From an uncultured bacterium (GTDB lineage Bacteria > Acidobacteriota > HRBIN11 > JAKEFK01), in the NCBI GenBank assembly GCA_963777505.1, contig CAVZQN010000004.1, positions 384,001-448,000 of the forward strand: DNA of 64,000 nt. The letters run 5' to 3'. Shown here in pieces: positions 1 through 14,419 of this stretch (positions are counted from its first letter, which is position 1; the number at the start of each line of letters is the position of its first letter). The notes under the pieces are model-generated. The model was given only the letters and a program-made list of their open reading frames with translations, searched no databases and was not told where the DNA came from. Both the position numbers and the translations under genes were made by a program.

Positions 1-3000
1 ACAGCTACGTATGTTGGTGCGTCTGCTGTTGCTGTAGAACAATCGGTGGCTACTCCGATCGAACAGGAAGTGAACGGTGTGGAAGGAATGATTTACATGA
101 AATCTTCCAACACGAGTGATGGCCGAATGCAGCTTGATGTTAATTTCGAAGTCGGTACGAATCAGGATACTGCGAACGTTCTCACTCAAAACCGTGTTTC
201 CTCTGCACAAGCGCGTTTACCGCAGGAAGTGATTGCGCAAGGTGTTACTGTCAAGAAACAAAGTCCCAGCATTTTGATGGTTATTTCTGTCGGTTCACCG
301 AACCAAAGCTATGACGCGAACTTCCTGATCAACTATTGCAGTATTAATTTGCGGGATCAGCTTCTCCGAATTCCTGGAATTGCTCAGGTTGATCTTTTCG
401 GTGGCTCAGATTATGGAATGCGAGTATGGCTTCTTCCGGATAAGCTTGCCACTTTTCAGCTAACACCATCGGATGTGATTAATGCAATCAAGGAACAGAA
501 CCTTCAGGCTCCCGGAGGCCGAGTTGGCATGTCGCCTTCACCAAAAGATCAAGCGTTTACATACACTGTGAGTGCTCCTGGACGTCTTGTAACTCCGGCA
601 GAATTCAGCAATATCATCATCCGCGAAACGGAAACAGGCGCACAAGTCCGAATAAAAGATATAGGGAGAGTCGAGCTCGGTTCGCAGGACTATAACTCTT
701 TTGGAAGACTCAATGGAAAGCCGGCCGGCTCGATGGCAGTTTATCTTCTTCCGGGAGCGAATCAGCTTGAAGCATCCGAAACGATCTATGAAACGATGCG
801 CCATGCAAAGGAATTGTTTCCGCCCGATATGAATTATGAAATCGTTTATGATACAACTCCGGCCGTAGAAGCCTCGATTCACGAGATTGAGAAAACGTTT
901 GTTGAAGCTCTAATACTTGTCACGTTCGTTGTTTTCATCTTCCTCCAAAATGTTCGTGCAACCATCATTCCTCTCCTGACTGTTCCGGTTTCACTGATCG
1001 GGACTTTCATATTTTTTCCTATGCTTGGATTTTCTGTAAACACGTTATCGATGTTTGGTTTGGTGCTGGCAATTGGAATTGTTGTTGATGACGCAATTGT
1101 CGTAGTTGAAGCTGTTATGCACCACATTGAACATGGCATGGGTCCAAAGGAAGCGACACAGCAAGCGATGAAGGAAGTGTCTAGTGCGGTTATAGGAATT
1201 GCATTGATTCTTTGTGCTGTATTCATTCCTGTTGCTTTCTTGGGAGGCTTGACCGGTAGAATGTACCAGCAATTCGCTTTAACGATTGCGATCTCGGTTT
1301 TGCTTTCTGCTTTCAACGCACTATCGCTTACTCCTGCTCTTGTCAGCAATGCTTCTTAAACCAGCAAAACCCGGGCCTGCAAGGGGACCACTGGGGAAAT
1401 TCTTTGCTCTCTTTAATCGCGGGTTTGACAAAACCACGAAGGGATATGTCAGCGTTTCCAGGTTGCTTGTACGCAGAGCGATTCTGAGCATTGCGCTTAT
1501 TGGTGTGGTGATCGTTGGCGTAGGATTGCTCGGAAAGCAATTGCCTGCGGGTTTTATTCCTGAAGAAGATCAGGGCATTCTGGGTGTCAATGTGCAGCTT
1601 CCACCTGCAGCTTCCCTTGAGCGCACAAGCGCCGTGCTGGCGCAAGTCGAACAAATTATTGGCAAGACAGAAGGTGTTCAAGCTTTTACAACGATTGGCG
1701 GTTATGGTGTTGTCACAAGTACATATCAGCCGAATTTCGGCACTGTCTTTGCGCGATTGAAACCATGGGAAGAGCGCCAAACAGAGGAGCTGAAGATAAA
1801 AGGACTGATGGCAAATCTTCAGAAACAGTTCGCACAGATTCCTGAAGCAATCATTTTTCCATTCAACATTCCAACTATTTCAGGTTTTGGAGCTTCGGCT
1901 GGATTTAATTTTCTGTTGCAAGACAGAAGTGGAACGTTGAGCGTGCCGCAGCTGGGTGAGCAGACACGGATATTCCTTGAAGAAGCGCGCAAACGACCGG
2001 AAATTGGAAACTTATTTACCTCGTTTGATCCACGCTATCCGCAAGTCAAAGTGGAACTGGATCGTGAAAAGGCTCGCAAGCTGGGAGTTCCAGTGAATGA
2101 AGTTTTCCAGGCAATGTCATCCGTTTTGGGCGGCTCATATGTAAATGACTTTAATCGCTTCGGGCGGCTGTACCGCGTCTACGTTCAAGCGGAATCAGAT
2201 TATCGCCGCAAGCCTGAAAATATCGGCGAGATTTATGTGAAGAGTAAAACTACAGGAGACATGATTCCGTTATCAACCATGATGAATGTTACAACGGAAT
2301 CGGGTACAGAAATTACAACCCGTTTCAACTTATTCCGTTCTGTAGAAATCAATGGTGTACCCGGCGGTGGTTACACTTCAGGACAGGCTCTTGCAGCGTT
2401 GGAAGATACTTTCAACAAAAAGATGCCGAAGGAAATGGGTTTTGCATATAATCAGTTGTCTTATCAAGAAAAAGTAGCGCCTCCTGCCACCCCAACATTT
2501 ATCCTTGCGATTGTTTTCGTATTCCTTCTCCTGGCAGCCATGTATGAAAGCTGGAAACTTCCATGGGCTGTCTTGCTTGGATCGCCGCTCGTTGCCCTGG
2601 GAGCATTCTTTGGAGTATGGATGATGGGTTACGACAACAATGTTTATGTGCAGATCGGTTTGATCATGCTCATTGGTTTGGCGGCAAAGAATGCGATCTT
2701 GATTGTTGAGTTTGCAAAAGCCAAGCATGAAGAAGGAATGTCTGTTGAAGACGCAGCGCTGGAATCTGCCCGCCTTCGGTTCCGCCCCATTCTCATGACA
2801 GCTTTTGCCTTTATTCTGGGAGTTGTTCCGTTAATGCTTGCCAGCGGCTCCGGGTCCGGTGCTCAAAACGTGATGGGAACCGCTGTATTTTGGGGAATGT
2901 TGGTCGCCACTGTACTCGGTGTATTTCTGATTCCTGGAAATTTTGCATTCGTTCAGGCATTGGGAGCAAAAAAGCGCAAGCCTGTGCCGACCCCTGAGCC

Positions 3001-3034
3001 ACCCAAGCCAGCAGTCGCTCATGGAGAACACTGA
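1..3034 (+). CDS. RND efflux permease (AcrB/HAE1 family), 5'-truncated by the window edge, single frameshift near 1340
   Basis: Frame open from base 1 (TATYVGASAVAVEQSVATPIEQ); motifs GIVVDDAIVVVE, GLAAKNAILIVEFA and RFRPILMT; ORFs 46-1359 and 1286-3034 join as ...LSLTPAL/SAMLLKP if one base is removed at gctcttgtca. Confidence 0.93.
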
Positions 3035-5160: not shown

Positions 5161-5258
5161 GAATCTGGTTCATTCTTTGAATCGCCAACTCAGGCTGCCC
5201 ATCTCCTAACTAACTCTAATACAACAACTTAGACAGCACGATTCTTGCGAATGTATGA

Positions 5259-5273
5259 TGGCACCTCGTTTGC
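5259..5273 (+). promoter_or_regulatory. sigma54 (-24/-12) promoter
   Basis: TGGCAC-CTCGT-TTGC, exact consensus; IHF-like core CAA-N4-TTA at about 5222-5231 lies between operator and promoter. Confidence 0.75.
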
Positions 5274-5286
5274 CAATTAGCAAAAC

Positions 5287-5613
5287 ATGATACTCATGAA
5301 TTTAAGAATAGTGCCGGTTCCTTATCGAACAGCTGAACTGATTGATGCTTTGCGACTGCACATGGGCCGGACACAAGTTCAACCTGGATGTATCCGATGC
5401 CGCATTAGCCAGGATTCAGAACAAAAGAACATCGTTCTTTATCAAGAGGAATGGAACACCTGGGAGGAACTTGATAAACACATTTGCTCTGATCGTTTTT
5501 CTTGGATTTTGGAATTGATGGAGCAGTCGAGCAATATGCCGGATCTCAATTTCTGTGACGTTCATGAAACTCGGGGAATTGAATACATCAAGAAATTACG
5601 CAAGGTGAACTAA
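5287..5613 (+). CDS. Antibiotic biosynthesis monooxygenase (ABM)/quinol monooxygenase-like protein
   Basis: 108 aa; pattern TQVQPGCIRC...LYQEEW...LDKHICS typical of the ABM fold. Confidence 0.7.
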   Translation: MILMNLRIVPVPYRTAELIDALRLHMGRTQVQPGCIRCRISQDSEQKNIVLYQEEWNTWEELDKHICSDRFSWILELMEQSSNMPDLNFCDVHETRGIEYIKKLRKVN

Positions 5614-5633
5614 AAGAATTTTGTGGAGAATAA

Positions 5634-6758
5634 GTGATGGAGTGTTCAAAAGCAGTAATTCCAAATCGATGTAAAAGAGAAATCATTAAAACTTTGATCC
5701 ATGATTTTTCAAAATGGCACAGTTTGTTCATTATTGTGCTCTTTTTTTTGTTGGCGCCATTTTCGTTATTCGCGTATGAGTTCAATGATTCACACTTTCA
5801 TTTGACCAGTTATATTCAGGAAGGGACAGACATTCATGAATTCGTAAAAATAATGGGAACGACTGTTGGCCGTTCTACTTTATTCGGAATTCCGTTGCAG
5901 CAGCAATGGGCCTACGGAAACACGGGCGATTTTGCTCCGACTTACTATCTTCAAACGGATGCTCCGCTTTATTACTACTCCTTTACAGATGCCCACATTG
6001 CGACGGCATATAAGTCTTTGAATCCCGAACAGCAGGCGCGTCTGGATCCGATGATTACCGGATTCAATCCTACAGACATGTATGCAGCTGATCATATCCG
6101 GCGCGTGCTTCAAACATTCCCTGGAGTGTTTACGGGCATCGGTGAATTTACTATTCACAAAGAGTTCGTCTCATCAAAAATTGCTGGTGATACTGCAAGC
6201 CTGACAAATCCGGCCTTAGACAAGATTCTGGACTTCGCAGCAGAAGCAGGGTTGGTTGCGATTCTTCACAACGATATCAATATGCCGTTTCCCAAACCGG
6301 ATCAGGAGCCATACATGCTCGTGCAATTAAAAGAGCTATTTATGCGGCATCCGAAAACGACAATCATCTGGGCCCACATTGGTCTGGGGAGAATTGTCCG
6401 TCCTGTAGACGAACAAGCTGCATTGATTGAACGTGCTCTCAACAACAAAGAAATGAGTCACGTTTACTTTGACATTTCATGGGACGAAGTAGCGAAATAC
6501 GCTGTTGCTACTCCCGAAGCTACAAAAACAGTCGCAGATTTGATCAATCGATTTCCGGACCGCTTCCTGTTTGGGACCGATGTGGTCGCGCCTAAAAACG
6601 TAAAAGCGATGACGGATGTGTTCCATATATATGATCCCGTCTGGAAGTTACTTACCAAAGAAGCAAGCCACAAAGTTCGGATCGGAAATTATGAGCGGCT
6701 ATTTAATGACGCCAGGACAAAAGTCAGAGCCTGGGAAAAAGTAAATATACGGAGATAA
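5634..6758 (+). CDS. Secreted amidohydrolase-superfamily metalloenzyme (start uncertain)
   Basis: Hydrophobic signal ending SLFA-YEF; DSHFH (HxH), GIGE, LHND, WAHIG and FGTD metal ligands. Confidence 0.82.
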   Translation: MMECSKAVIPNRCKREIIKTLIHDFSKWHSLFIIVLFFLLAPFSLFAYEFNDSHFHLTSYIQEGTDIHEFVKIMGTTVGRSTLFGIPLQQQWAYGNTGDFAPTYYLQTDAPLYYYSFTDAHIATAYKSLNPEQQARLDPMITGFNPTDMYAADHIRRVLQTFPGVFTGIGEFTIHKEFVSSKIAGDTASLTNPALDKILDFAAEAGLVAILHNDINMPFPKPDQEPYMLVQLKELFMRHPKTTIIWAHIGLGRIVRPVDEQAALIERALNNKEMSHVYFDISWDEVAKYAVATPEATKTVADLINRFPDRFLFGTDVVAPKNVKAMTDVFHIYDPVWKLLTKEASHKVRIGNYERLFNDARTKVRAWEKVNIRR

Positions 6759-6762
6759 ACAG

Positions 6763-8073
6763 ATGAGATATAGAGCCAAGTTTTCTTACATCAACATCGG
6801 GTGGCTGTGGGGATTCGTTTTAATATTTTTCCTCGCGCCATCCATATACGCAGAAGCAAATGAGGTCGAATCTTTTGATTTAGTGGCTTCTGCATCATTG
6901 GATGATGCTGCAGCGCAGGATGCTGAGACAGTTGAAGCAAAACCAAAATTTGATATTTACGGTTTTGCAATGTTGGACACCGGATATCAAACCGGACAAA
7001 ACGATCCGAATTGGTTTGATGTTGTAAGGCCGACAAAACTTCCTTCTTTTGACGATGAGTTTGGCGAAGATGGCCGCTGGTTCGCAGGAGTTCGTCAATC
7101 GCGTTTTGGTGCGAAGGCTTACTTCCCAACAGATCTTGGCGAATTAAGAACAACATTTGAATTCGAATTATTTGGTACAGGTGTAGATCAGGGACAGACG
7201 ACATTTCGTTTGCGACATGCATATGGTGAGCTAGGTCAATTTGGTGCAGGCCAATACTGGAGCCCGTTCATGGATATCGATGTGTTCCCAAATACGATTG
7301 AGTATTGGGGACCAACCGGAATGGTATTCTTTCGGAACGTTCAAGTACGCTGGATGCCGATCCAGGGTGATTCACGTTTGACGATAGCAGTTGAGCGGCC
7401 TGGTGCCAGTGCGGATGCCGGCTCCATCGCAGACCGTATCGAACTTCAAGGTGTTCGCGGACGATTTCCAGTGCCAGATATTTCTGCTGAGTACCGCTAT
7501 GGCGGAAATAGCTGGGGCTATGTCGAAGCGGCAGGAATTTTCAGAAAGATGTACATAGATGATACCAATACGGATGAATTTGATCTGGATCAGGATTTAA
7601 CCGGTTGGGGCATTAATTTAAGTTCAAACCTGAAATTCGGAAACGATACGCTTCGACTTCAATACGTTTTTGGTGAAGGCATTCAAAACTACATGAATGA
7701 TGCGCCGGTTGATGTTGGAGCGAAGAGCAATCCTGGAAACGTCGTAACGCCAGTTGAAGGTGAAGCGCTTCCACTTCAAGGACTCGTTATTTTTTATGAC
7801 CACACCTGGGGTGATGGTGACTGGACCACTTCAGTCGGCTATTCAATGATCGACATTGAAAATAGTGATCTGCAATTAGCAAGCGCTTTTAAGGCCGGTC
7901 ATTACGCAATCGGCAACCTTCTTTACTATCCCGCACCGAACGTGATGATGGGCGGCGAACTTCAATGGGGCCGCAGAGAAAACTTCGCTGATGGCTTTGA
8001 AGTCGATGATTTTCGCATTCAATTCTCATTCAAATATAACTTTTCGGTCTCTTTAGGAGGTAACGAATTATGA
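6763..8073 (+). CDS. DcaP-like outer-membrane porin
   Basis: Signal peptide; DIYGFAM, RQSRFG, FRLRHAYG and GQYWSPFMD motifs; amphipathic beta strands ending FSFKYNF. Confidence 0.8.
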   Translation: MRYRAKFSYINIGWLWGFVLIFFLAPSIYAEANEVESFDLVASASLDDAAAQDAETVEAKPKFDIYGFAMLDTGYQTGQNDPNWFDVVRPTKLPSFDDEFGEDGRWFAGVRQSRFGAKAYFPTDLGELRTTFEFELFGTGVDQGQTTFRLRHAYGELGQFGAGQYWSPFMDIDVFPNTIEYWGPTGMVFFRNVQVRWMPIQGDSRLTIAVERPGASADAGSIADRIELQGVRGRFPVPDISAEYRYGGNSWGYVEAAGIFRKMYIDDTNTDEFDLDQDLTGWGINLSSNLKFGNDTLRLQYVFGEGIQNYMNDAPVDVGAKSNPGNVVTPVEGEALPLQGLVIFYDHTWGDGDWTTSVGYSMIDIENSDLQLASAFKAGHYAIGNLLYYPAPNVMMGGELQWGRRENFADGFEVDDFRIQFSFKYNFSVSLGGNEL

Positions 8074-11000
8074 GCAGCGTAATGCGATATATAAAACAAC
8101 CATGGCTACTGCTGCTTGTAATAGCCATGTTTACAGTCACATCAGCACAAGCTCAAACCGCTGATGAGATTAATGCTGCACTGAAAGCAGCATATGACAA
8201 ATACTTGACTCTTCAAGAGGGTAAAAATGCTGACTATATTCCTGCACTTGCAAAAGTAGATCCAAATGTTTTTGGAATCGCGTTGGTGACAACCGATGGA
8301 AAGGTCTACACAACAGGAGACATTACGACCGAAGTATCGATCCAATCGATTTCTAAAGTTTTCACAATGGCTCAGGTGATTCAGGAACAAGGATTGGATC
8401 AAATCAGAAATACGATCGGTGTTGATGCAACAGGCGCGCGATTCAATTCGATCATCGCAGTCGAAGGAGTTCGCACAGTTGTTGGCACCGGAGCTCCGGA
8501 AATGAATCCGTTAGTAAATGCAGGCGCAATTTCATCGACCGGTATGGTAAAAGGAGCAAATGCCGATGAGATTTGGAACAAGATCATAGGAATTCATAAT
8601 GATTGTGCCGGGCGTCAGCTTACAGTACTGCAAGATGTTTACAAGTCTGAATCAGATTCGAATCAACGCAACCAGGCAATTGGCGCATTGATGCTTGCGT
8701 ATGGTTACATCAAGACCGATTGGGAACGTGCAGTGGATCTCTACACGCGGCAATGTTCTATCGGCGTGAATGCAAAAGATTTAGCATCAATGGCGGGAAC
8801 ACTCGCAAACGGCGGTAAAAATCCTGTAACTGGCAAACAAGTAATCGATGCGGAGAAAGTTCCAGGAGTACTTGCCGTAATGGCAACTGCAGGTTTGTAC
8901 GATGATTCGGGCAAGTGGCTTTTTGCAACAGGACTGCCTGCGAAAAGCGGAGTTGGTGGCGGCCTCATTGCTATATCACCAGGCAAATTCGGGATCGCGG
9001 TGATCTCTCCACCACTTGATGATGCAGGAAACAGCGTTAAAGCACAGAAAGCGATCACAGATATTTCAAATGCGTTAGACGGAAATCCATACGCAGTAAC
9101 CCCGGGTGATACTGCAGATATCCAGGGAGAGGTAAAACCAAAATTTGATATTTATGGTTTTGCAATGATGGATACCGGATATCAAAGCGGACAAAACGAT
9201 CCGAATTGGTTTGATGTTGTAAGGCCGACAAAACTTCCTTCTTTTGAAGATGAGTTTGGCGAAGATGGCCGCTGGTTCGCAGGAGTTCGTCAATCGCGTT
9301 TTGGTGCGAAGGCTTACTTCCCAACAGATCTTGGCGAATTAAGAACAACATTTGAATTCGAATTATTTGGTACCGGTGTAGATCAGGGACAAACGACATT
9401 TCGTTTGCGACATGCATATGGTGAGCTAGGTCAATTTGGTGCAGGCCAATACTGGAGCCCGTTCATGGATATCGATGTGTTCCCAAATACGATTGAATAT
9501 TGGGGACCAACCGGAATGGTGTTCTTTCGGAACGTTCAAGTACGCTGGATGCCAATCCAGGGTGATTCACGGTTGACGATTGCAGTTGAGCGGCCTGGTG
9601 CCAGTGCGGATGCCGGCTCTATCGCAGACCGTATCGAACTTCAAGGTGTTCGCGGACGATTTCCAGTGCCAGATATTTCTGCTGAGTACCGCTATGGCGG
9701 AAATAGCTGGGGCTATGTCGAAGCGGCAGGAATTTTCAGAAAGATGTACATAGATGATACCAATACGGATGAATTTGATCTGGATCAGGATTTAACCGGT
9801 TGGGGCATTAATTTGAGTTCAAACCTGAAATTCGGAAACGATACGCTTCGACTTCAATACGTTTTTGGTGAAGGCATTCAAAACTACATGAATGATGCGC
9901 CGGTTGATGTTGGAGCGAAGAGCAATCCTGGAAACGTAGTAACGCCAGTTGAAGGTGAAGCGCTTCCACTTCAAGGACTCGTTATTTTTTATGACCACAC
10001 CTGGGGTGATGGTGACTGGACCACTTCAGTCGGCTATTCAATGATCGACATTGAAAATAGTGATCTGCAATTAGCAAGCGCTTTTAAGGCCGGTCATTAC
10101 GCAATCGGTAACCTTCTTTACTATCCCGCACCGAACGTAATGATGGGCGGCGAACTTCAATGGGGCCGCAGAGAAAACTTCGCTGATGGCTTTGAAGTCG
10201 ATGATTTTCGTATTCAATTCTCATTCAAATATAACTTTTCGGTCTCTTTAGGAGGTCAATAACCATGAGCAGCTCAATATTAAAATTTGCAACAAGAACA
10301 TGGCTTCTGCTGCTTGTTGTTGCAATGTTTTCAGTAACGTCAGTTGCAGGCTCAAACACCGGATCAAATTAATAGTGCCTTGAAGGCAGCGTATGACAAG
10401 TATCAAAATTTGAAAGAAGGTAAGAATGCGGACTATATTCCTGCACTTGCCAAAGTAGATCCAAATGTTTTTGGAATCGCGTTGGTGACAACCGATGGAA
10501 AGGTTTATTCAACTGGCGATCTGAAGACTGAAGTATCGATCCAATCGATCTCAAAAGTTTTTACGATGGCGCAGGTGATTCAGGAACAGGGATTGGATCA
10601 AATCAGCAAAACGATTGGTGTTGATGCAACAGGCGCGCGATTCAATTCGATCATCGCTGTGGAAGCGGTCAAGACAGTAGTTGGTACGGGAGCACCGGAG
10701 ATGAATCCGTTAGTAAATGCAGGCGCAATTTCATCGACCGGTATGGTAAAAGGAAATTCTGCTGATGAGGTCTGGGCTAAGATCATCGGAATTCATAATG
10801 ATTTTGCTGGCCGACAGCTAACTGTTCTTCAGGATGTATACAAATCGGAGGCCGACACGAACCAGCGCAACCAGGCGATTGGCGCTCTCATGCTGGCTTA
10901 TGGATACATCAAGAATAATTGGCAGCAGGCGGTTGATCTTTACACGAAGCAGTGTTCGATTGGAGTTAACGCGAAAGATTTAGCCACAATGGCCGGTACG

Positions 11001-11300
11001 CTTGCTAATGGCGGAAAAAATCCAGTTACCGGGAAAGTAATTATTGATGCCGCAAAAGTGCCCGGTGTCCTTGCAGTTATGGCGACAGCTGGTTTATACG
11101 ATGATTCCGGCAAATGGCTTTTTGCAACAGGACTGCCTGCAAAGAGCGGAGTAGGGGGCGGCATTATTGCTGTGTCACCAGGGAAATTCGGAATCGCAGT
11201 GATCTCTCCACCACTTGATGATGCAGGAAACAGCGTTAAAGCACAGAAAGTGATCACAGATATTTCAAATGCGTTAGGCGGAAATCCTTACGCTACAAGG
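6939..11300 (+). repeat. Tandem duplication of a 2195-bp porin+glutaminase unit
   Basis: 6939-8061 matches 9134-10256 with only scattered substitutions; glutaminase starts 8070 and 10265 have the same 2195 offset. Confidence 0.9.
8070..10262 (+). CDS. glsA: Glutaminase A fused to a C-terminal DcaP-like porin
   Basis: Signal peptide (AQA-QT); glutaminase motifs YIPALA, SIQSISK, NPLVNAGAI, LPAKSGVGGG and SPPLDDAGNS; short linker; then a near-identical copy of the upstream porin in one uninterrupted 730-aa ORF. Confidence 0.85.
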   Translation: MSSVMRYIKQPWLLLLVIAMFTVTSAQAQTADEINAALKAAYDKYLTLQEGKNADYIPALAKVDPNVFGIALVTTDGKVYTTGDITTEVSIQSISKVFTMAQVIQEQGLDQIRNTIGVDATGARFNSIIAVEGVRTVVGTGAPEMNPLVNAGAISSTGMVKGANADEIWNKIIGIHNDCAGRQLTVLQDVYKSESDSNQRNQAIGALMLAYGYIKTDWERAVDLYTRQCSIGVNAKDLASMAGTLANGGKNPVTGKQVIDAEKVPGVLAVMATAGLYDDSGKWLFATGLPAKSGVGGGLIAISPGKFGIAVISPPLDDAGNSVKAQKAITDISNALDGNPYAVTPGDTADIQGEVKPKFDIYGFAMMDTGYQSGQNDPNWFDVVRPTKLPSFEDEFGEDGRWFAGVRQSRFGAKAYFPTDLGELRTTFEFELFGTGVDQGQTTFRLRHAYGELGQFGAGQYWSPFMDIDVFPNTIEYWGPTGMVFFRNVQVRWMPIQGDSRLTIAVERPGASADAGSIADRIELQGVRGRFPVPDISAEYRYGGNSWGYVEAAGIFRKMYIDDTNTDEFDLDQDLTGWGINLSSNLKFGNDTLRLQYVFGEGIQNYMNDAPVDVGAKSNPGNVVTPVEGEALPLQGLVIFYDHTWGDGDWTTSVGYSMIDIENSDLQLASAFKAGHYAIGNLLYYPAPNVMMGGELQWGRRENFADGFEVDDFRIQFSFKYNFSVSLGGQ

Positions 11301-11309
11301 CCGCGTTGA
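10265..11309 (+). CDS. glsA: Secreted glutaminase A, frameshift near 10343 at the end of the signal peptide
   Basis: ATG 10265 MSSSILKFATRTWLLLLVVAMFSVTS joins QAQTPDQ... if one base is removed; all glutaminase motifs intact. Confidence 0.88.
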
Positions 11310-11320
11310 ATTCATGCAGT

Positions 11321-11353
11321 AAGAGCGTGGGCAACAATGCCTGCGCTCTTTTT
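11321..11353 (+). terminator. Rho-independent terminator
   Basis: aagagcgtgggca-acaa-tgcctgcgctctt followed by a T-run. Confidence 0.7.
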
Positions 11354-11412
11354 CGGCATCAGTAATTTTGTCGGCTGGGATTAAACAGTTGAACAGAGAT
11401 AGGAGATTGTTT

Positions 11413-12915
11413 ATGAGGGTTCTCTCTGGATTCGGTTCGATATTTTTGCGTTATCTAGTCTGCATCGTTTTCTTTCTCGTTTTACCGCAATTTCTTTCGG
11501 CCCAGGCAGTCTTAATAACTTGTTCGTCCAAGGTAGGCGAGCGCCAATCGTGCCCTGCTGATACTTCGAGGGGTGTTGTTCTTGCTAAATCCTCAGGTGA
11601 GTCTGCCTGCCTGTTAGGGAAGACATGGGGCTACGATGATAAGGGCGTCTGGGTTTCGGACGGTTGTGTCGGTGAATTCATCGTTAAAGGAGGGTCGACA
11701 GAGCAACCGGAGAAGAAAGGGAAACCCGAATACATTCCCAACGCCGGGTTCCTTTTATATGAAGGCGAAAAGGGCGAAATATATATGAGGCTCTTTAGCT
11801 ATGTGCGTTACCTGAATCAGAAAGGTCTGGATCCGAACTATACTGACTTCTTCGGGAATACGTTCGAAGTAAAGCAACGCGAGGATGTTCAGTTAACCAA
11901 GTTCTTTCTGCCGTTTACCGGTTGGTTCTTGACTCCAAAGTTCCGCTACTACCTATATGTATGGTCAGCTAACACATCTCAAGGCGATGCAGCACAGGTG
12001 GTGGGCGCTGGCAACTTGAGTTACAGCTTCAACAGGCATGTGATTTTTGGTGGTGGAATTACCAGTCTTCCTTCTGTGCGAAGCACCGAGGGTCAATTCC
12101 CTTACTGGCACAGCGTAGACAATCGTCTTATTTCGGACGAGTTCTTCCGGGGCTCGTACACAAGCGGCTTTTGGCTCAAAGGAGAGATCTCCGCCGAATT
12201 GAAATATCAGGCGATGATCGGCAATAACCTGAGCACGCTCGGTGTGAGCGCAGCGCAACTGGACAACAAGCTCAATACATCCTCATTCATGCTCCAATGG
12301 TTGCCGACTACAGGTGAGTTCGGCCTTTACGGGACGTATGGCGATTACGACTTTCACGAAAACTTAGCTACACGGCTTGCAGGCCACTACACCCATAGTA
12401 CAGAGGATAGGCAGAGCCAGCCAGGTGCCAACAGCATTGAGAATAGCCAGATCCGGCTAACAGATGGAAGCGTTATCTTCACTCCCAATCTTTTCGGCGA
12501 TGGCATTACGGTTGAACAAGTTGACTACGACATGTCGAGCATTGATGCAGGACTGAAGTGGAAAGGTTTTGCGCTTGAAGGAGAGTACTACTGGCGCTGG
12601 TTAAGTGATTTCCAGGGAAGCAACATGGGAGGAATTGCCGACATCAACGATCACGGTTATCAGCTGCAATTTTCAGCAATGGTTATCCCTAAAGTCCTTC
12701 AGCCCTATATTGGCAGTTCTGGAATCTATGGCGACTTTGGTGATGCATCCGAGTTTCGAGCAGGCGTTAACTGGTATTTCATTGAGCAACGCGGACTCAG
12801 AGTGAATGCGGAATGGATTCATCTAAATAATTCTCCGGTTGGATACATAGCAGTTCCTTATCCAGTGGGTGGAAATGGAGACGTTTTCACCGCCGTTTTG
12901 GAGATGAATTTCTAA
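11413..12915 (+). CDS. Outer-membrane porin-like protein with N-terminal Cys-rich DUF3011-like domain
   Basis: RBS aggag; signal peptide; ITCSS..RQSC..C..GKTWGYD..GVWVSDGC.GEF domain; beta-rich body ending in Phe (LEMNF). Confidence 0.65.
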   Translation: MRVLSGFGSIFLRYLVCIVFFLVLPQFLSAQAVLITCSSKVGERQSCPADTSRGVVLAKSSGESACLLGKTWGYDDKGVWVSDGCVGEFIVKGGSTEQPEKKGKPEYIPNAGFLLYEGEKGEIYMRLFSYVRYLNQKGLDPNYTDFFGNTFEVKQREDVQLTKFFLPFTGWFLTPKFRYYLYVWSANTSQGDAAQVVGAGNLSYSFNRHVIFGGGITSLPSVRSTEGQFPYWHSVDNRLISDEFFRGSYTSGFWLKGEISAELKYQAMIGNNLSTLGVSAAQLDNKLNTSSFMLQWLPTTGEFGLYGTYGDYDFHENLATRLAGHYTHSTEDRQSQPGANSIENSQIRLTDGSVIFTPNLFGDGITVEQVDYDMSSIDAGLKWKGFALEGEYYWRWLSDFQGSNMGGIADINDHGYQLQFSAMVIPKVLQPYIGSSGIYGDFGDASEFRAGVNWYFIEQRGLRVNAEWIHLNNSPVGYIAVPYPVGGNGDVFTAVLEMNF

Positions 12916-12924
12916 GAAGGAAAT

Positions 12925-14259
12925 ATGTTTTGGGTCGAATTGATTCTATTCCTCGCATGCATCGTAGTTGGTGCGCGCATCGGAGGAATTGGACTTGGAA
13001 CAATTGCTGGTTTTGGTTTGATGGTGTTTGTGTTTGTGTTTCAGCTTCCGCCAGGTTCGCCTCCAGGTACAGTGCTTGGGATGATCATTGCAGTCATCAC
13101 TGCTCTTTCCGTAATGCAAGCAGCTGGTGGTCTTGATTATTTAGTACAAACGGCGGAAGGAATTTTGAAAAGTCGCCCGCGCCAGATTACAGTACTCGGT
13201 CCACTTGTTACATACATCCTGGTTTTTGCAGCGGGCACTCAGCATGTGGTTTATGCGCTGCTGCCGGTGATTGCCGAAGTATCGCGTCGCGCAGGAATTC
13301 GGCCGGAGCGTCCGATGTCCATCAGTGTGATCGCTTCACTTCAAGGTGTGATCGCATCGCCAGTATCAGCAGTAACAGTCGCTCTGGTAGGAGTGCTGGC
13401 GGTAAAGAATGTAGGTCTCCCGCAGATTCTGATGGTGATTATTCCATCCACATTACTGGGTGTAATGGCAGGAATCCTTTCTGTTTGGTGGACAGGAAAA
13501 GAGCTTGATAAGGATCCGGAATACTTGAAACGGCTTGCGGAAGGAAAAGTAAAGTCTGTTGAGCAAGCGCCTCCATTGGAAGGTCAGGCTCGCACGCGAG
13601 CGATTGGCTCCTGCATCGTATTTGTTCTCGCAATTCTTTCGGTTGTGGCCATTGGGTTATTTCCTGATTTACGGCCAACTTATCAGAAGGTTGTTGAAGA
13701 CGTCACAGAGACGGGCCAGGTTGAGATGGGCAGGGCAATCATGATTTTGATGCTTTGCGCAGCAGGTCTCATCATGGTTTTTTTTAAGGCGAGTCCAGAA
13801 GCCGCAGTGAAAGGAAGCATGATGAAAGGTGGTCTGGTCGCGCTCATTTCAATCCTTGGAGTTTCATGGTTGGGATCATCGTTTTTTGAAGCCAATCAAA
13901 ACATAATTGTGAATGCTATTTCTTCTACGATTCAATCACATCCATGGATTTTTTCTGTAGGCTTGTTCACTTTATCTATACTTTTATTCAGTCCAGCGGC
14001 CACCATTGCAATCCTTGCACCGGTTGGGATCGCTCTTGGTCTTGGTGCGCAGGAAATGATCGGTGCATATCCGTCAGTGAACGGACTTTTCTTTTTACCT
14101 ACATACGGCACAATTCTGGCTGCTGTTTCATTCGATCAATCGGGGACAACACGCATCGGAAAGTATTTGCTGAACCACAGTTTCATGATCCCGGGTATGG
14201 TGACAACTATTGTTGCAACTATCACGGCGTTGCTTTTGAGTTCAATCGTTTTCAAGTAA
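12925..14259 (+). CDS. Anaerobic C4-dicarboxylate transporter (DcuA/DcuB family)
   Basis: GARIGGIGLG, MQAAGGLDYLV, RPERPMS, FFLPTYG and FDQSGTTRIGKYLLNHSFMIPG motifs. Confidence 0.92.
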   Translation: MFWVELILFLACIVVGARIGGIGLGTIAGFGLMVFVFVFQLPPGSPPGTVLGMIIAVITALSVMQAAGGLDYLVQTAEGILKSRPRQITVLGPLVTYILVFAAGTQHVVYALLPVIAEVSRRAGIRPERPMSISVIASLQGVIASPVSAVTVALVGVLAVKNVGLPQILMVIIPSTLLGVMAGILSVWWTGKELDKDPEYLKRLAEGKVKSVEQAPPLEGQARTRAIGSCIVFVLAILSVVAIGLFPDLRPTYQKVVEDVTETGQVEMGRAIMILMLCAAGLIMVFFKASPEAAVKGSMMKGGLVALISILGVSWLGSSFFEANQNIIVNAISSTIQSHPWIFSVGLFTLSILLFSPAATIAILAPVGIALGLGAQEMIGAYPSVNGLFFLPTYGTILAAVSFDQSGTTRIGKYLLNHSFMIPGMVTTIVATITALLLSSIVFK

Positions 14260-14419
14260 ATAGGAAGTCAATATGAAAAATTACTATAATATTAATACTA
14301 ATATGATCAGTCCCAATTGCTGTTCTGCCCAGGACAAGTCTCGGGTGTAGAAAGATCTACTTGGGTAAAAACAGATTCCTGCCGAAGCATATTACGGCGT
14401 GCAAACAGCGCGCGCTTTT

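Follow-up and report, generated by a model that had tools for sequence, protein, structure and literature searches.

A glutaminase A domain fused to a DcaP-type outer-membrane porin in soil bacteria: a recurrent architecture and its possible role as a glutamine sink

Introduction

Porins have been regarded as passive sieves. For oligotrophic bacteria of the soil it is an open question, and a practical one, by what means scarce solutes are drawn through these channels. The locus described here gives that question a particular turn. It lies in a stretch of 64,000 nucleotides from an uncultured bacterium of the phylum Acidobacteriota (assembly GCA_963777505.1, contig CAVZQN010000004.1, positions 384,001 to 448,000), hereafter called the window, in which a single gene (8070-10262, + strand) encodes both a glutaminase and an outer-membrane porin. 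Is such a gene genuine, how did it arise, and what might an enzyme do at the N-terminus of a channel?

The fusion is real, recurrent and uncharacterised, and it is widespread in genomes recovered from soil metagenomes. The reading favoured here, to which we assign a probability of roughly 0.68, is that the gene encodes a Sec-exported chimera derived from a tandemly duplicated porin-glutaminase pair, and that its glutaminase, held under a DcaP-type channel, acts as a reaction-driven sink for glutamine. The original prediction, made from the letters of the window alone, had held that this architecture is not known from characterised proteins, and no paper on a glutaminase-porin fusion was found in the literature searched (subscription journals and supplements were outside its scope).

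Anatomy of the fused gene

The fusion gene is a single open reading frame of 730 aa in the list of open reading frames, with an ATG start, at 8070-10262 on the + strand, along which four parts follow one another. The signal peptide (8070-8153, residues 1-28) has a basic N-region, a hydrophobic core and an AQA end (TSAQA, followed by Q); it was judged by eye from the translation, no predictor having been run, and the same kind of N-terminus is present in 25 of 25 aligned fusions. Next comes a glutaminase A domain of the GlsA/YbaS type (8154-9095, residues 29-342; supported by Pfam, NCBIfam and the alignment with YbaS), then a linker of 13 aa with the sequence VTPGDTADIQGEV (9096-9134, residues 343-355), and finally a DcaP-type 16-strand porin barrel, which begins at K356 and extends, with the stop codon, over 9135-10262 (residues 356-730).

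Both halves belong to known families, the first being a glutaminase by profile and the second a porin by profile and by fold. The Pfam Glutaminase model PF04960 matches residues 51-337 (E 8.6e-100; 334 bits against a cut-off of 27), and the NCBIfam equivalog for glutaminase A, NF009020, is matched above its threshold (410.6 bits, threshold 395), as is TIGR03814 (333.2 bits, threshold 255.4). The DcaP family model PF19577 matches residues 408-723 (E 1e-16, with 61.5 bits for a threshold of 27). Escherichia coli YbaS (GlsA1; 1U60) aligns over the whole of the fused domain, to residues 31-339 of the fusion (E 8.6e-78), and the two share Ser-x-x-Lys, Asn and Lys-Ser: S93/K96, N150 and K292/S293 of the fusion pair with positions 66/69, 117 and 259/260 of YbaS and are invariant across the alignment of 25 full-length fusions. 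These residues, which in the translation fall in SISK (93-96), at N150 and in LPAKSGVGGG (289-298), we take to be the catalytic Ser-x-x-Lys, Asn and Lys-Ser of the glutaminase family, whose roles Brown et al. are said to have described in 2008. By its motifs the domain is complete and predicted to be catalytically intact. Unlike YbaS, which in E. coli is cytoplasmic and free, the fused glutaminase has a signal peptide, an insertion of six residues at 134-139 and a covalent tie to an outer-membrane barrel. The layout first read from the letters, namely a signal peptide, a glutaminase with SxxK and LPAKSGVGGG, a linker of about 13 aa and a complete porin within one 730-aa frame, is therefore borne out by the frame itself, by Pfam and NCBIfam and by the model of the barrel presented below.

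The junction in independent assemblies

The same junction recurs outside the window. In G001, a genome of the window's genus whose copies of these genes are the same as those at the public locus L007, the fusion is one open frame at 86% identity. P0001, a protein from a separate assembly, matches at 98% identity; of its 11 differences two lie within the linker, and the in-frame junction is the same, as it is in a further protein, P0017. Among the best 120 protein clusters, drawn from Joint Genome Institute (JGI), European Nucleotide Archive and NCBI data, 85 run without a break from the C-terminus of the glutaminase through the linker into the first strand of the barrel, and 66 of these 85 are at least 700 aa long. 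Across the 85 fusion proteins the linker, taken between the NPY and IYGF motifs, measures 13-26 aa and is variable and of low complexity; the fusions among the relatives listed are 60-74% identical to that of the window. In both G001 and P0001 the frame stays open across the junction, which we accept because these independent assemblies and 85 of the best 120 clusters carry it. From these comparisons an artefact is taken as excluded for the fusion itself and would be conceivable only for the extra porin gene upstream of it (P1, described below).

Both halves are also maintained by selection. The fused glutaminase domain (G1) of the window is 92.7% identical in amino acids to that of G001 though 30% of the four-fold degenerate sites have changed, and the fused barrel is 83.9% identical though 47% of such sites have changed, a sign of strong purifying selection on both.

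Fold and topology of the barrel

A model of the barrel by itself, built with AlphaFold2 (AF2) from an alignment of 55 rows, has a mean predicted local distance difference test score (pLDDT) of 92.1 and a predicted template-modelling score (pTM) of 0.88. It contains 16 long strands, by our own count from the DSSP string, and the 13 residues before the strands (340-352) have pLDDT below 50 and are disordered in the model. In a Foldseek search the first-ranked match was DcaP of Acinetobacter baumannii (6eus_A; E 2e-22, template-modelling (TM) scores 0.77/0.86, root-mean-square deviation 3.0 Å, 19% identity); the next were classical 16-strand trimeric porins, with TM scores of about 0.5-0.6 and ten orders of magnitude weaker. 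At the level of sequence, no match for the barrel was found in the PDB at E <= 0.001. The likeness to DcaP that had been suggested for the barrel is confirmed by this top-ranked fold match and by the PF19577 score above cut-off.

According to the part of its description that was available, DcaP is a trimer whose N-terminus is periplasmic and carries a coiled coil of 49 residues on a disordered linker of 10 residues (bioRxiv 10.1101/306035). The original prediction had the enzyme take the place of this extension, and in that form the idea did not hold. The PF19577 matches of both the fusion and the upstream porin P1 begin only at profile position 115 of 410, the free porins of the window's subfamily have a low-complexity tail of about 0-45 aa and no coiled coil, and no DcaP-type N-terminal periplasmic coiled coil was found in the fusion, where the glutaminase occupies that position. 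The linkers of the fusions resemble the ends of the low-complexity tails of the free porins.

Since the number of strands is even and the barrel is homologous to DcaP, the N-terminal enzyme would be periplasmic, and since the linker is short it would lie directly under the barrel. By analogy with the periplasmic N-terminus of DcaP, an enzyme in the periplasm beneath the channel is the best reading, in agreement with the placement at the periplasmic end of the channel that had originally been envisaged; display at the surface is unlikely. R46 does not vary in an alignment of barrels numbered from fusion residue 340, and R68, R71, R106, R108, R148 and R153 are nearly invariant. DcaP prefers anionic substrates, as stated in the available part of the same report (bioRxiv 10.1101/306035), and the conserved arginines may be a sign, only a suggestive one, of a preference for anionic carboxylates here too.

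Origin by tandem duplication

The fusion gene was originally described as flanked by a stand-alone porin gene and a stand-alone glutaminase gene. The first of these stands: P1 (6763-8073, + strand) encodes a free DcaP-type porin of 436 aa with its own signal peptide and an acidic extension of 29 aa (PF19577, 63.8 bits). The second is present but damaged. G2, downstream, encodes the mature part of a free glutaminase A (10344-11309, + strand; 321 aa from a TTG; Pfam E 2.3e-101; NF009020 413.3 bits, above 395), 88.9% identical in amino acids to the fused domain, and the frame 10344-11309 has no signal peptide. The signal peptide is instead encoded by a frame that opens with an ATG at 10265 and meets a stop at 10372 (10265-10372, + strand). 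An alignment with G1 of the window and the two G001 copies shows one surplus base, a G at 10343 after a TCA codon, which puts this frame out of register with the mature enzyme. The counterpart of G2 in G001 is intact with its signal peptide in frame, and a signal peptide is present on every other fused or free glutaminase inspected, G2 of the window being the sole exception. The frameshift may be genuine, marking a pseudogene or a form that is not secreted, or it may be an indel of the assembly.

The order porin, fusion, glutaminase is made by a direct tandem repeat (6939-11293, + strand), in which a blastn self-comparison pairs 6939-9094 with 9134-11293 at a period of 2,195 bp and 90.4% identity, homology resuming at 9134. 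In windows of 100 bp the identity is uneven, with 94-100% in the porin parts and 69-93% in the glutaminase parts. The barrels of P1 and of the fusion (P2) are 99.2% identical in amino acids and 98.4% in nucleotides, and only 9 of 171 four-fold sites (5%) differ between them (6939-8060 against 9134-10255), whereas 70 of 148 (47%) differ between G1 and G2 of the window, a divergence equal to that of orthologues between the window genome and its genus-mate. From this strong likeness of the barrels beside the diverged glutaminases it follows that the barrels were homogenised recently, by gene conversion or by re-duplication, and that the duplication of the glutaminase is old; the sharp boundary is typical of a conversion tract confined to the barrel.

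In unfused loci the porin gene precedes the glutaminase gene, so that joining a glutaminase to a following porin requires a duplication. In a tandem duplication the glutaminase gene would have been fused at its 3' end onto the low-complexity extension at the 5' end of the porin gene, giving porin, fusion and glutaminase in that order. The window would retain the full product, and its genus-mate would have lost the upstream porin P1. The N-terminus of P1 is homologous to those of free porins in a genome of the same family (G002) and in a named Acidobacteriota genome (P0093, 83% identity), which identifies P1 as the ancestral free gene.

The trees suggest that this did not happen in a single, cleanly inherited step. 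In the porin tree the family of the window forms one clade (97 in the Shimodaira-Hasegawa-like approximate likelihood-ratio test, SH-aLRT), yet fused barrels are scattered among free ones, with at least six changes between fused and free forced by the starred branches. That all fused barrels form one clade is rejected by the approximately unbiased (AU) test (p 4.9e-11), which was run without L082, a duplicate of L007, and without the P1 of the window, on a group named after the tree had been seen. In the glutaminase tree the upstream copies of Vicinamibacterales form one clade (SH-aLRT 93), and the fused and free copies of the window's genus cluster together (SH-aLRT 100). Gene conversion is evident, P1 and P2 differing at 5% of four-fold sites where barrels of the two species differ at 47%, and it can blur both trees; the fusion may have had at least two origins, or else one origin followed by transfer and conversion.

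Relatives and gene neighbourhood

Gene order was tallied over 82 loci, counting complete domains only. In 7 of them the fusion has a free glutaminase behind it, as it does in 6 more, all from long-read soil genomes, where its porin part is interrupted; the order porin, fusion, glutaminase was found in the window alone. A free glutaminase lies downstream in 14 of the 14 fused loci examined, which were chosen by match score, a measure that favours loci with extra copies. The genome scan gave matches of about 2.15 kb over query residues 1-729 that could pass for fusions, and analysis of their reading frames resolved most of them into a porin gene and a separate glutaminase gene. Nineteen of 301 genomes sampled from the window's phylum gave a match at E <= 1e-60 (one of them, G153, is unpublished), and the fused form was present only in the window genome and in G001. 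The window's own genome, rated 95.9% complete, gave no match to the rpoB family model TIGR02013.

The fusion stands in a run of genes that are all on one strand from 5287 to 14259, with gaps of at most 59 bp. The first encodes an ABM-domain protein (5287-5613, + strand; PF03992, E 2.1e-6) and the second an Amidohydro_2 protein with an N-terminal hydrophobic segment (5634-6758, + strand; PF04909, E 1.4e-13), after which come P1, the fusion and G2. Next is a 515-aa protein with an N-terminal DUF3011 domain and an outer-membrane-like C-terminal part (11368-12915, + strand; PF11218, E 4.4e-12, residues 50-110), and the run closes with an inner-membrane dicarboxylate transporter of the DcuA/DcuB family (12925-14259, + strand; PF03605, E 4e-125; NF006927, 487.7 bits, above 369). 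A promoter-like site (5230-5259) and a terminator-like site (14396-14416) bracket the run, such sites being not above chance in the region.

Two of these partners are conserved. Of 80 loci, 66 encode the amidohydrolase, a secreted protein, and 60 the DUF3011 protein, whose DUF3011 domain contains cysteines; the C-terminal part of the latter, which ends in LEMNF, is probably a barrel. Neither protein has sequence relatives in the PDB, and the protein-cluster matches of the amidohydrolase are labelled only 'putative amidohydrolase'. One relative, P0192 (672 aa), is a fusion of Amidohydro_2 to Glutaminase, which points to a possible functional link between amidohydrolase and glutaminase. Another, P0123 (521 aa), has a CarboxypepD_reg domain ahead of a DcaP-type barrel, and several other porin relatives have N-terminal extensions of 100-145 aa. 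Together P0192 and P0123 hint that the members of the cluster and the N-terminus of the barrel may have been recombined more widely. Two further proteins, P0131 and P0138 (about 610-670 aa), each contain two glutaminase domains in tandem, and a metagenome genome of Cellvibrionales shows the reverse gene order (L011:3448-5811), glutaminase then porin, 3 bp apart and each with its own signal peptide.

Elsewhere in the window a gene for an efflux pump of the AcrB/AcrD/AcrF type has been divided between two frames, 46-1359 and 1286-3034 (Pfam positions 62-487 and 484-1020), by what looks like an insertion of one nucleotide in their overlap (1286-1359), in sequence that is not a homopolymer; this lesion may be either a real pseudogene or an indel of the assembly.

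A glutamine sink beneath the channel

The reading that we favour can be set out as a series of steps. The chimera would be exported by Sec and its barrel inserted with the N-terminus facing the periplasm, as in DcaP, so that each porin subunit would hold one glutaminase domain just below the channel. Incoming glutamine, or a close amide, would be deamidated at once to glutamate and ammonium; the periplasmic concentration of the substrate would be kept low, and net influx through a passive pore would stay maximal. Glutamate and ammonium would then be imported by inner-membrane carriers, for which the Dcu-family transporter encoded two genes downstream in this genus is a candidate. Both the role as a sink and the uptake of the products are inferred. 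Substrate channelling and mixed trimers with the unfused porin, as originally suggested, would be further possibilities.

Two systems offer precedents for parts of this scheme. In pseudomonads, as described in the portion of the source that was accessible, periplasmic deamidation of glutamine by AnsB is coupled to uptake of glutamate by AatJQMP (PMC7962211). The logic is the same, but AnsB, a soluble member of the asparaginase family, has no link to a porin, and the inner-membrane partner here would be a carrier of the Dcu family. For the sucrose porin ScrY, the available text of the DcaP report mentions a proposal that its N-terminal extension acts as a periplasmic 'sink' (bioRxiv 10.1101/306035); that appendage, likewise periplasmic, is a sucrose-binding coiled coil and not an enzyme.

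Several observations weigh against this proposal. As regards structure, the AF2 model of the full-length protein (25-row alignment) is poor (pLDDT 64.1, pTM 0.48), and the placement of enzyme relative to barrel was not taken from it. A complex prediction of the glutaminase domain (45 rows) with the barrel (55 rows), for which controls were not run, gave 0.00 twice where the mark is 0.32, and speaks neither for nor against docking. Glutaminases of this family form D2 tetramers, by the part of the source at hand (PMC8130709), a symmetry that is at odds with a three-fold porin. The free glutaminase retained downstream could, where intact, serve as a partner for the tethered domains, and the frameshift in G2 weakens, for the window genome, the original idea of oligomers with free glutaminase. 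As regards the substrate, the characterised DcaP porins favour anionic di- and tricarboxylates, at least in the part of the literature on them that was available, whereas glutamine is not an anion but a zwitterion. Some other amide could be the real substrate, or else the channel could be meant for the product.

Comparison across genomes raises further objections. Tethering is evidently not required, as in 45 of the 82 loci, from several phyla, porin and glutaminase are encoded by two successive genes, the porin first; the unfused pair occurs in cultured Flavobacterium, among them Flavobacterium aquidurense, in cultured Steroidobacter and Peristeroidobacter and also in Gemmatimonadales, Thermoanaerobaculia, Zixibacteria and others. 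The fused domain is not visibly specialised: in an alignment from 12 Vicinamibacterales loci, fused and free glutaminase domains can be told apart at only two columns, neither of which holds for the window's genus. The Dcu transporter adjoins the cluster in only 3 of 80 loci. Finally, no piece from four sequencing runs, at 90% likeness, had at least 31 letters on both sides of 9090-9140 (each run shared only 0.05-0.06 of the sampled words, and the piece nearest to the junction starts at 9134), and among the runs found there was no RNA run containing this stretch of the window.

A bolder form of the sink proposal is that these genes make a recurrent outer-membrane metabolon, in which duplication-born fusions arose repeatedly and were kept because three tethered glutaminases turn the trimeric pore into a one-way glutamine intake, with the free paralogue completing the oligomers. 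We regard this form as doubtful; if it held, the outer membrane would have its first described case of vectorial uptake coupled to a hydrolase.

Alternative explanations

The rival that survives best accepts the fusion as real and takes it to be neutral, a tolerated by-product of an unstable tandem duplication whose tethered enzyme acts like the free one and brings no kinetic gain. The scatter of fused barrels over the porin tree, with its six or more changes, and the rejection of a single fused clade by the AU test fit the frequent gain and loss that it implies, and it accounts as readily for fused and free domains that can barely be told apart, for a free glutaminase kept downstream in every fused locus examined and for the prevalence of unfused pairs among the relatives. 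Set against this, the fusion persists over deep divergence (60-74% identity, with 66 clusters of at least 700 aa), the length of the linker is constrained to 13-26 aa, both halves are under strong purifying selection, and recombination should soon collapse such a direct repeat if nothing retained it. We judge the neutral account unlikely.

Another possibility is pH homeostasis, in which ammonia released inside the pore would consume periplasmic protons, a role comparable to the glutamine-dependent acid resistance of E. coli. The YbaS system of E. coli is cytoplasmic and works with the GadC antiporter, which counts against such a role, and no GadC-type antiporter was identified among the cluster genes scanned, nor any pH-related regulator among the scanned genes adjoining the cluster; moreover, the conserved partners, an amidohydrolase and a second outer-membrane protein, point to the processing of a substrate. 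The idea draws on the equivalog-level match of the domain to glutaminase A of the YbaS type, on the acid resistance that YbaS confers through release of ammonia (PMC3641589, in the part available) and on the fact that the holders of the fusion are soil bacteria, and we consider it improbable.

Surface display, which had been offered as an alternative from the outset, would make the barrel an autotransporter-like translocator of the enzyme, and an N-terminal passenger-like domain ahead of a C-terminal barrel does superficially match classical autotransporters. Neither the 12-strand C-terminal barrel nor the pore-spanning helical linker of the classical (type Va) kind was found, however: the barrel has the fold of a 16-strand DcaP-like porin and not that of a 12-strand autotransporter, the linker (13-26 aa, of low complexity, predicted to be disordered over its 13 residues in the window) includes no pore-filling helix before the first strand, the N-terminus of DcaP is periplasmic in the available description, and the free paralogues, exported by Sec signal peptides alone, act in the periplasm, all of which makes display highly improbable.

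An artefact of assembly or sequencing, whether an indel that removed a stop codon or a chimeric joining of two strains, could appeal to at least two suspicious insertions of one nucleotide within 11 kb (in the AcrB-type gene at about 1286-1359 and in G2 at 10343), to read pieces that do not span the junction and to P1 and P2 barrels only 1.6% apart in nucleotides, as two co-assembled strains would show, so that the porin-fusion-glutaminase order could be chimeric, but it is scarcely credible for a junction that is in frame in G001, P0001, P0017 and 85 of the best 120 clusters and for a fused barrel that lacks the signal peptide of its own that a read-through of two genes would keep.

Relation to known systems and perspectives

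The nearest known design is Cyc2 of iron-oxidising bacteria, which, in the part of the source that was available, comprises a signal peptide, an N-terminal monohaem cytochrome proposed to lie at the periplasmic opening and a 16-strand porin (bioRxiv 10.1101/228056). Both proteins thus have a catalytic domain between a signal peptide and a 16-strand porin, a likeness of layout, with none expected in sequence; in Cyc2 the domain is a small cytochrome for electron transfer, whereas here it is a full-size hydrolase that would act on a diffusing solute. DcaP of A. baumannii (6EUS; PF19577) is closer in its barrel, which the fusion matches in family and in fold, and both bear an N-terminal appendage on a short disordered linker, which in DcaP is the 49-residue coiled coil and in the fusion an enzyme of 35 kDa.

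The fusion also bears on how such proteins are annotated. JGI labels the fusion proteins simply 'glutaminase A', and labels of this kind, or labels split between two names, hide an outer-membrane protein.

For the biology of porins, the glutaminase-porin fusion adds a second example, after Cyc2, of a catalytic domain on the N-terminus of a 16-strand porin, and by analogy it suggests that the N-terminal end of the barrel may be a general docking point for periplasmic modules. A hydrolase at the periplasmic mouth of a porin would offer a natural and genetically simple test of whether an enzyme at the exit raises flux, as fused and split versions of both proteins exist in related genomes and the window itself has a free porin beside the fused gene.

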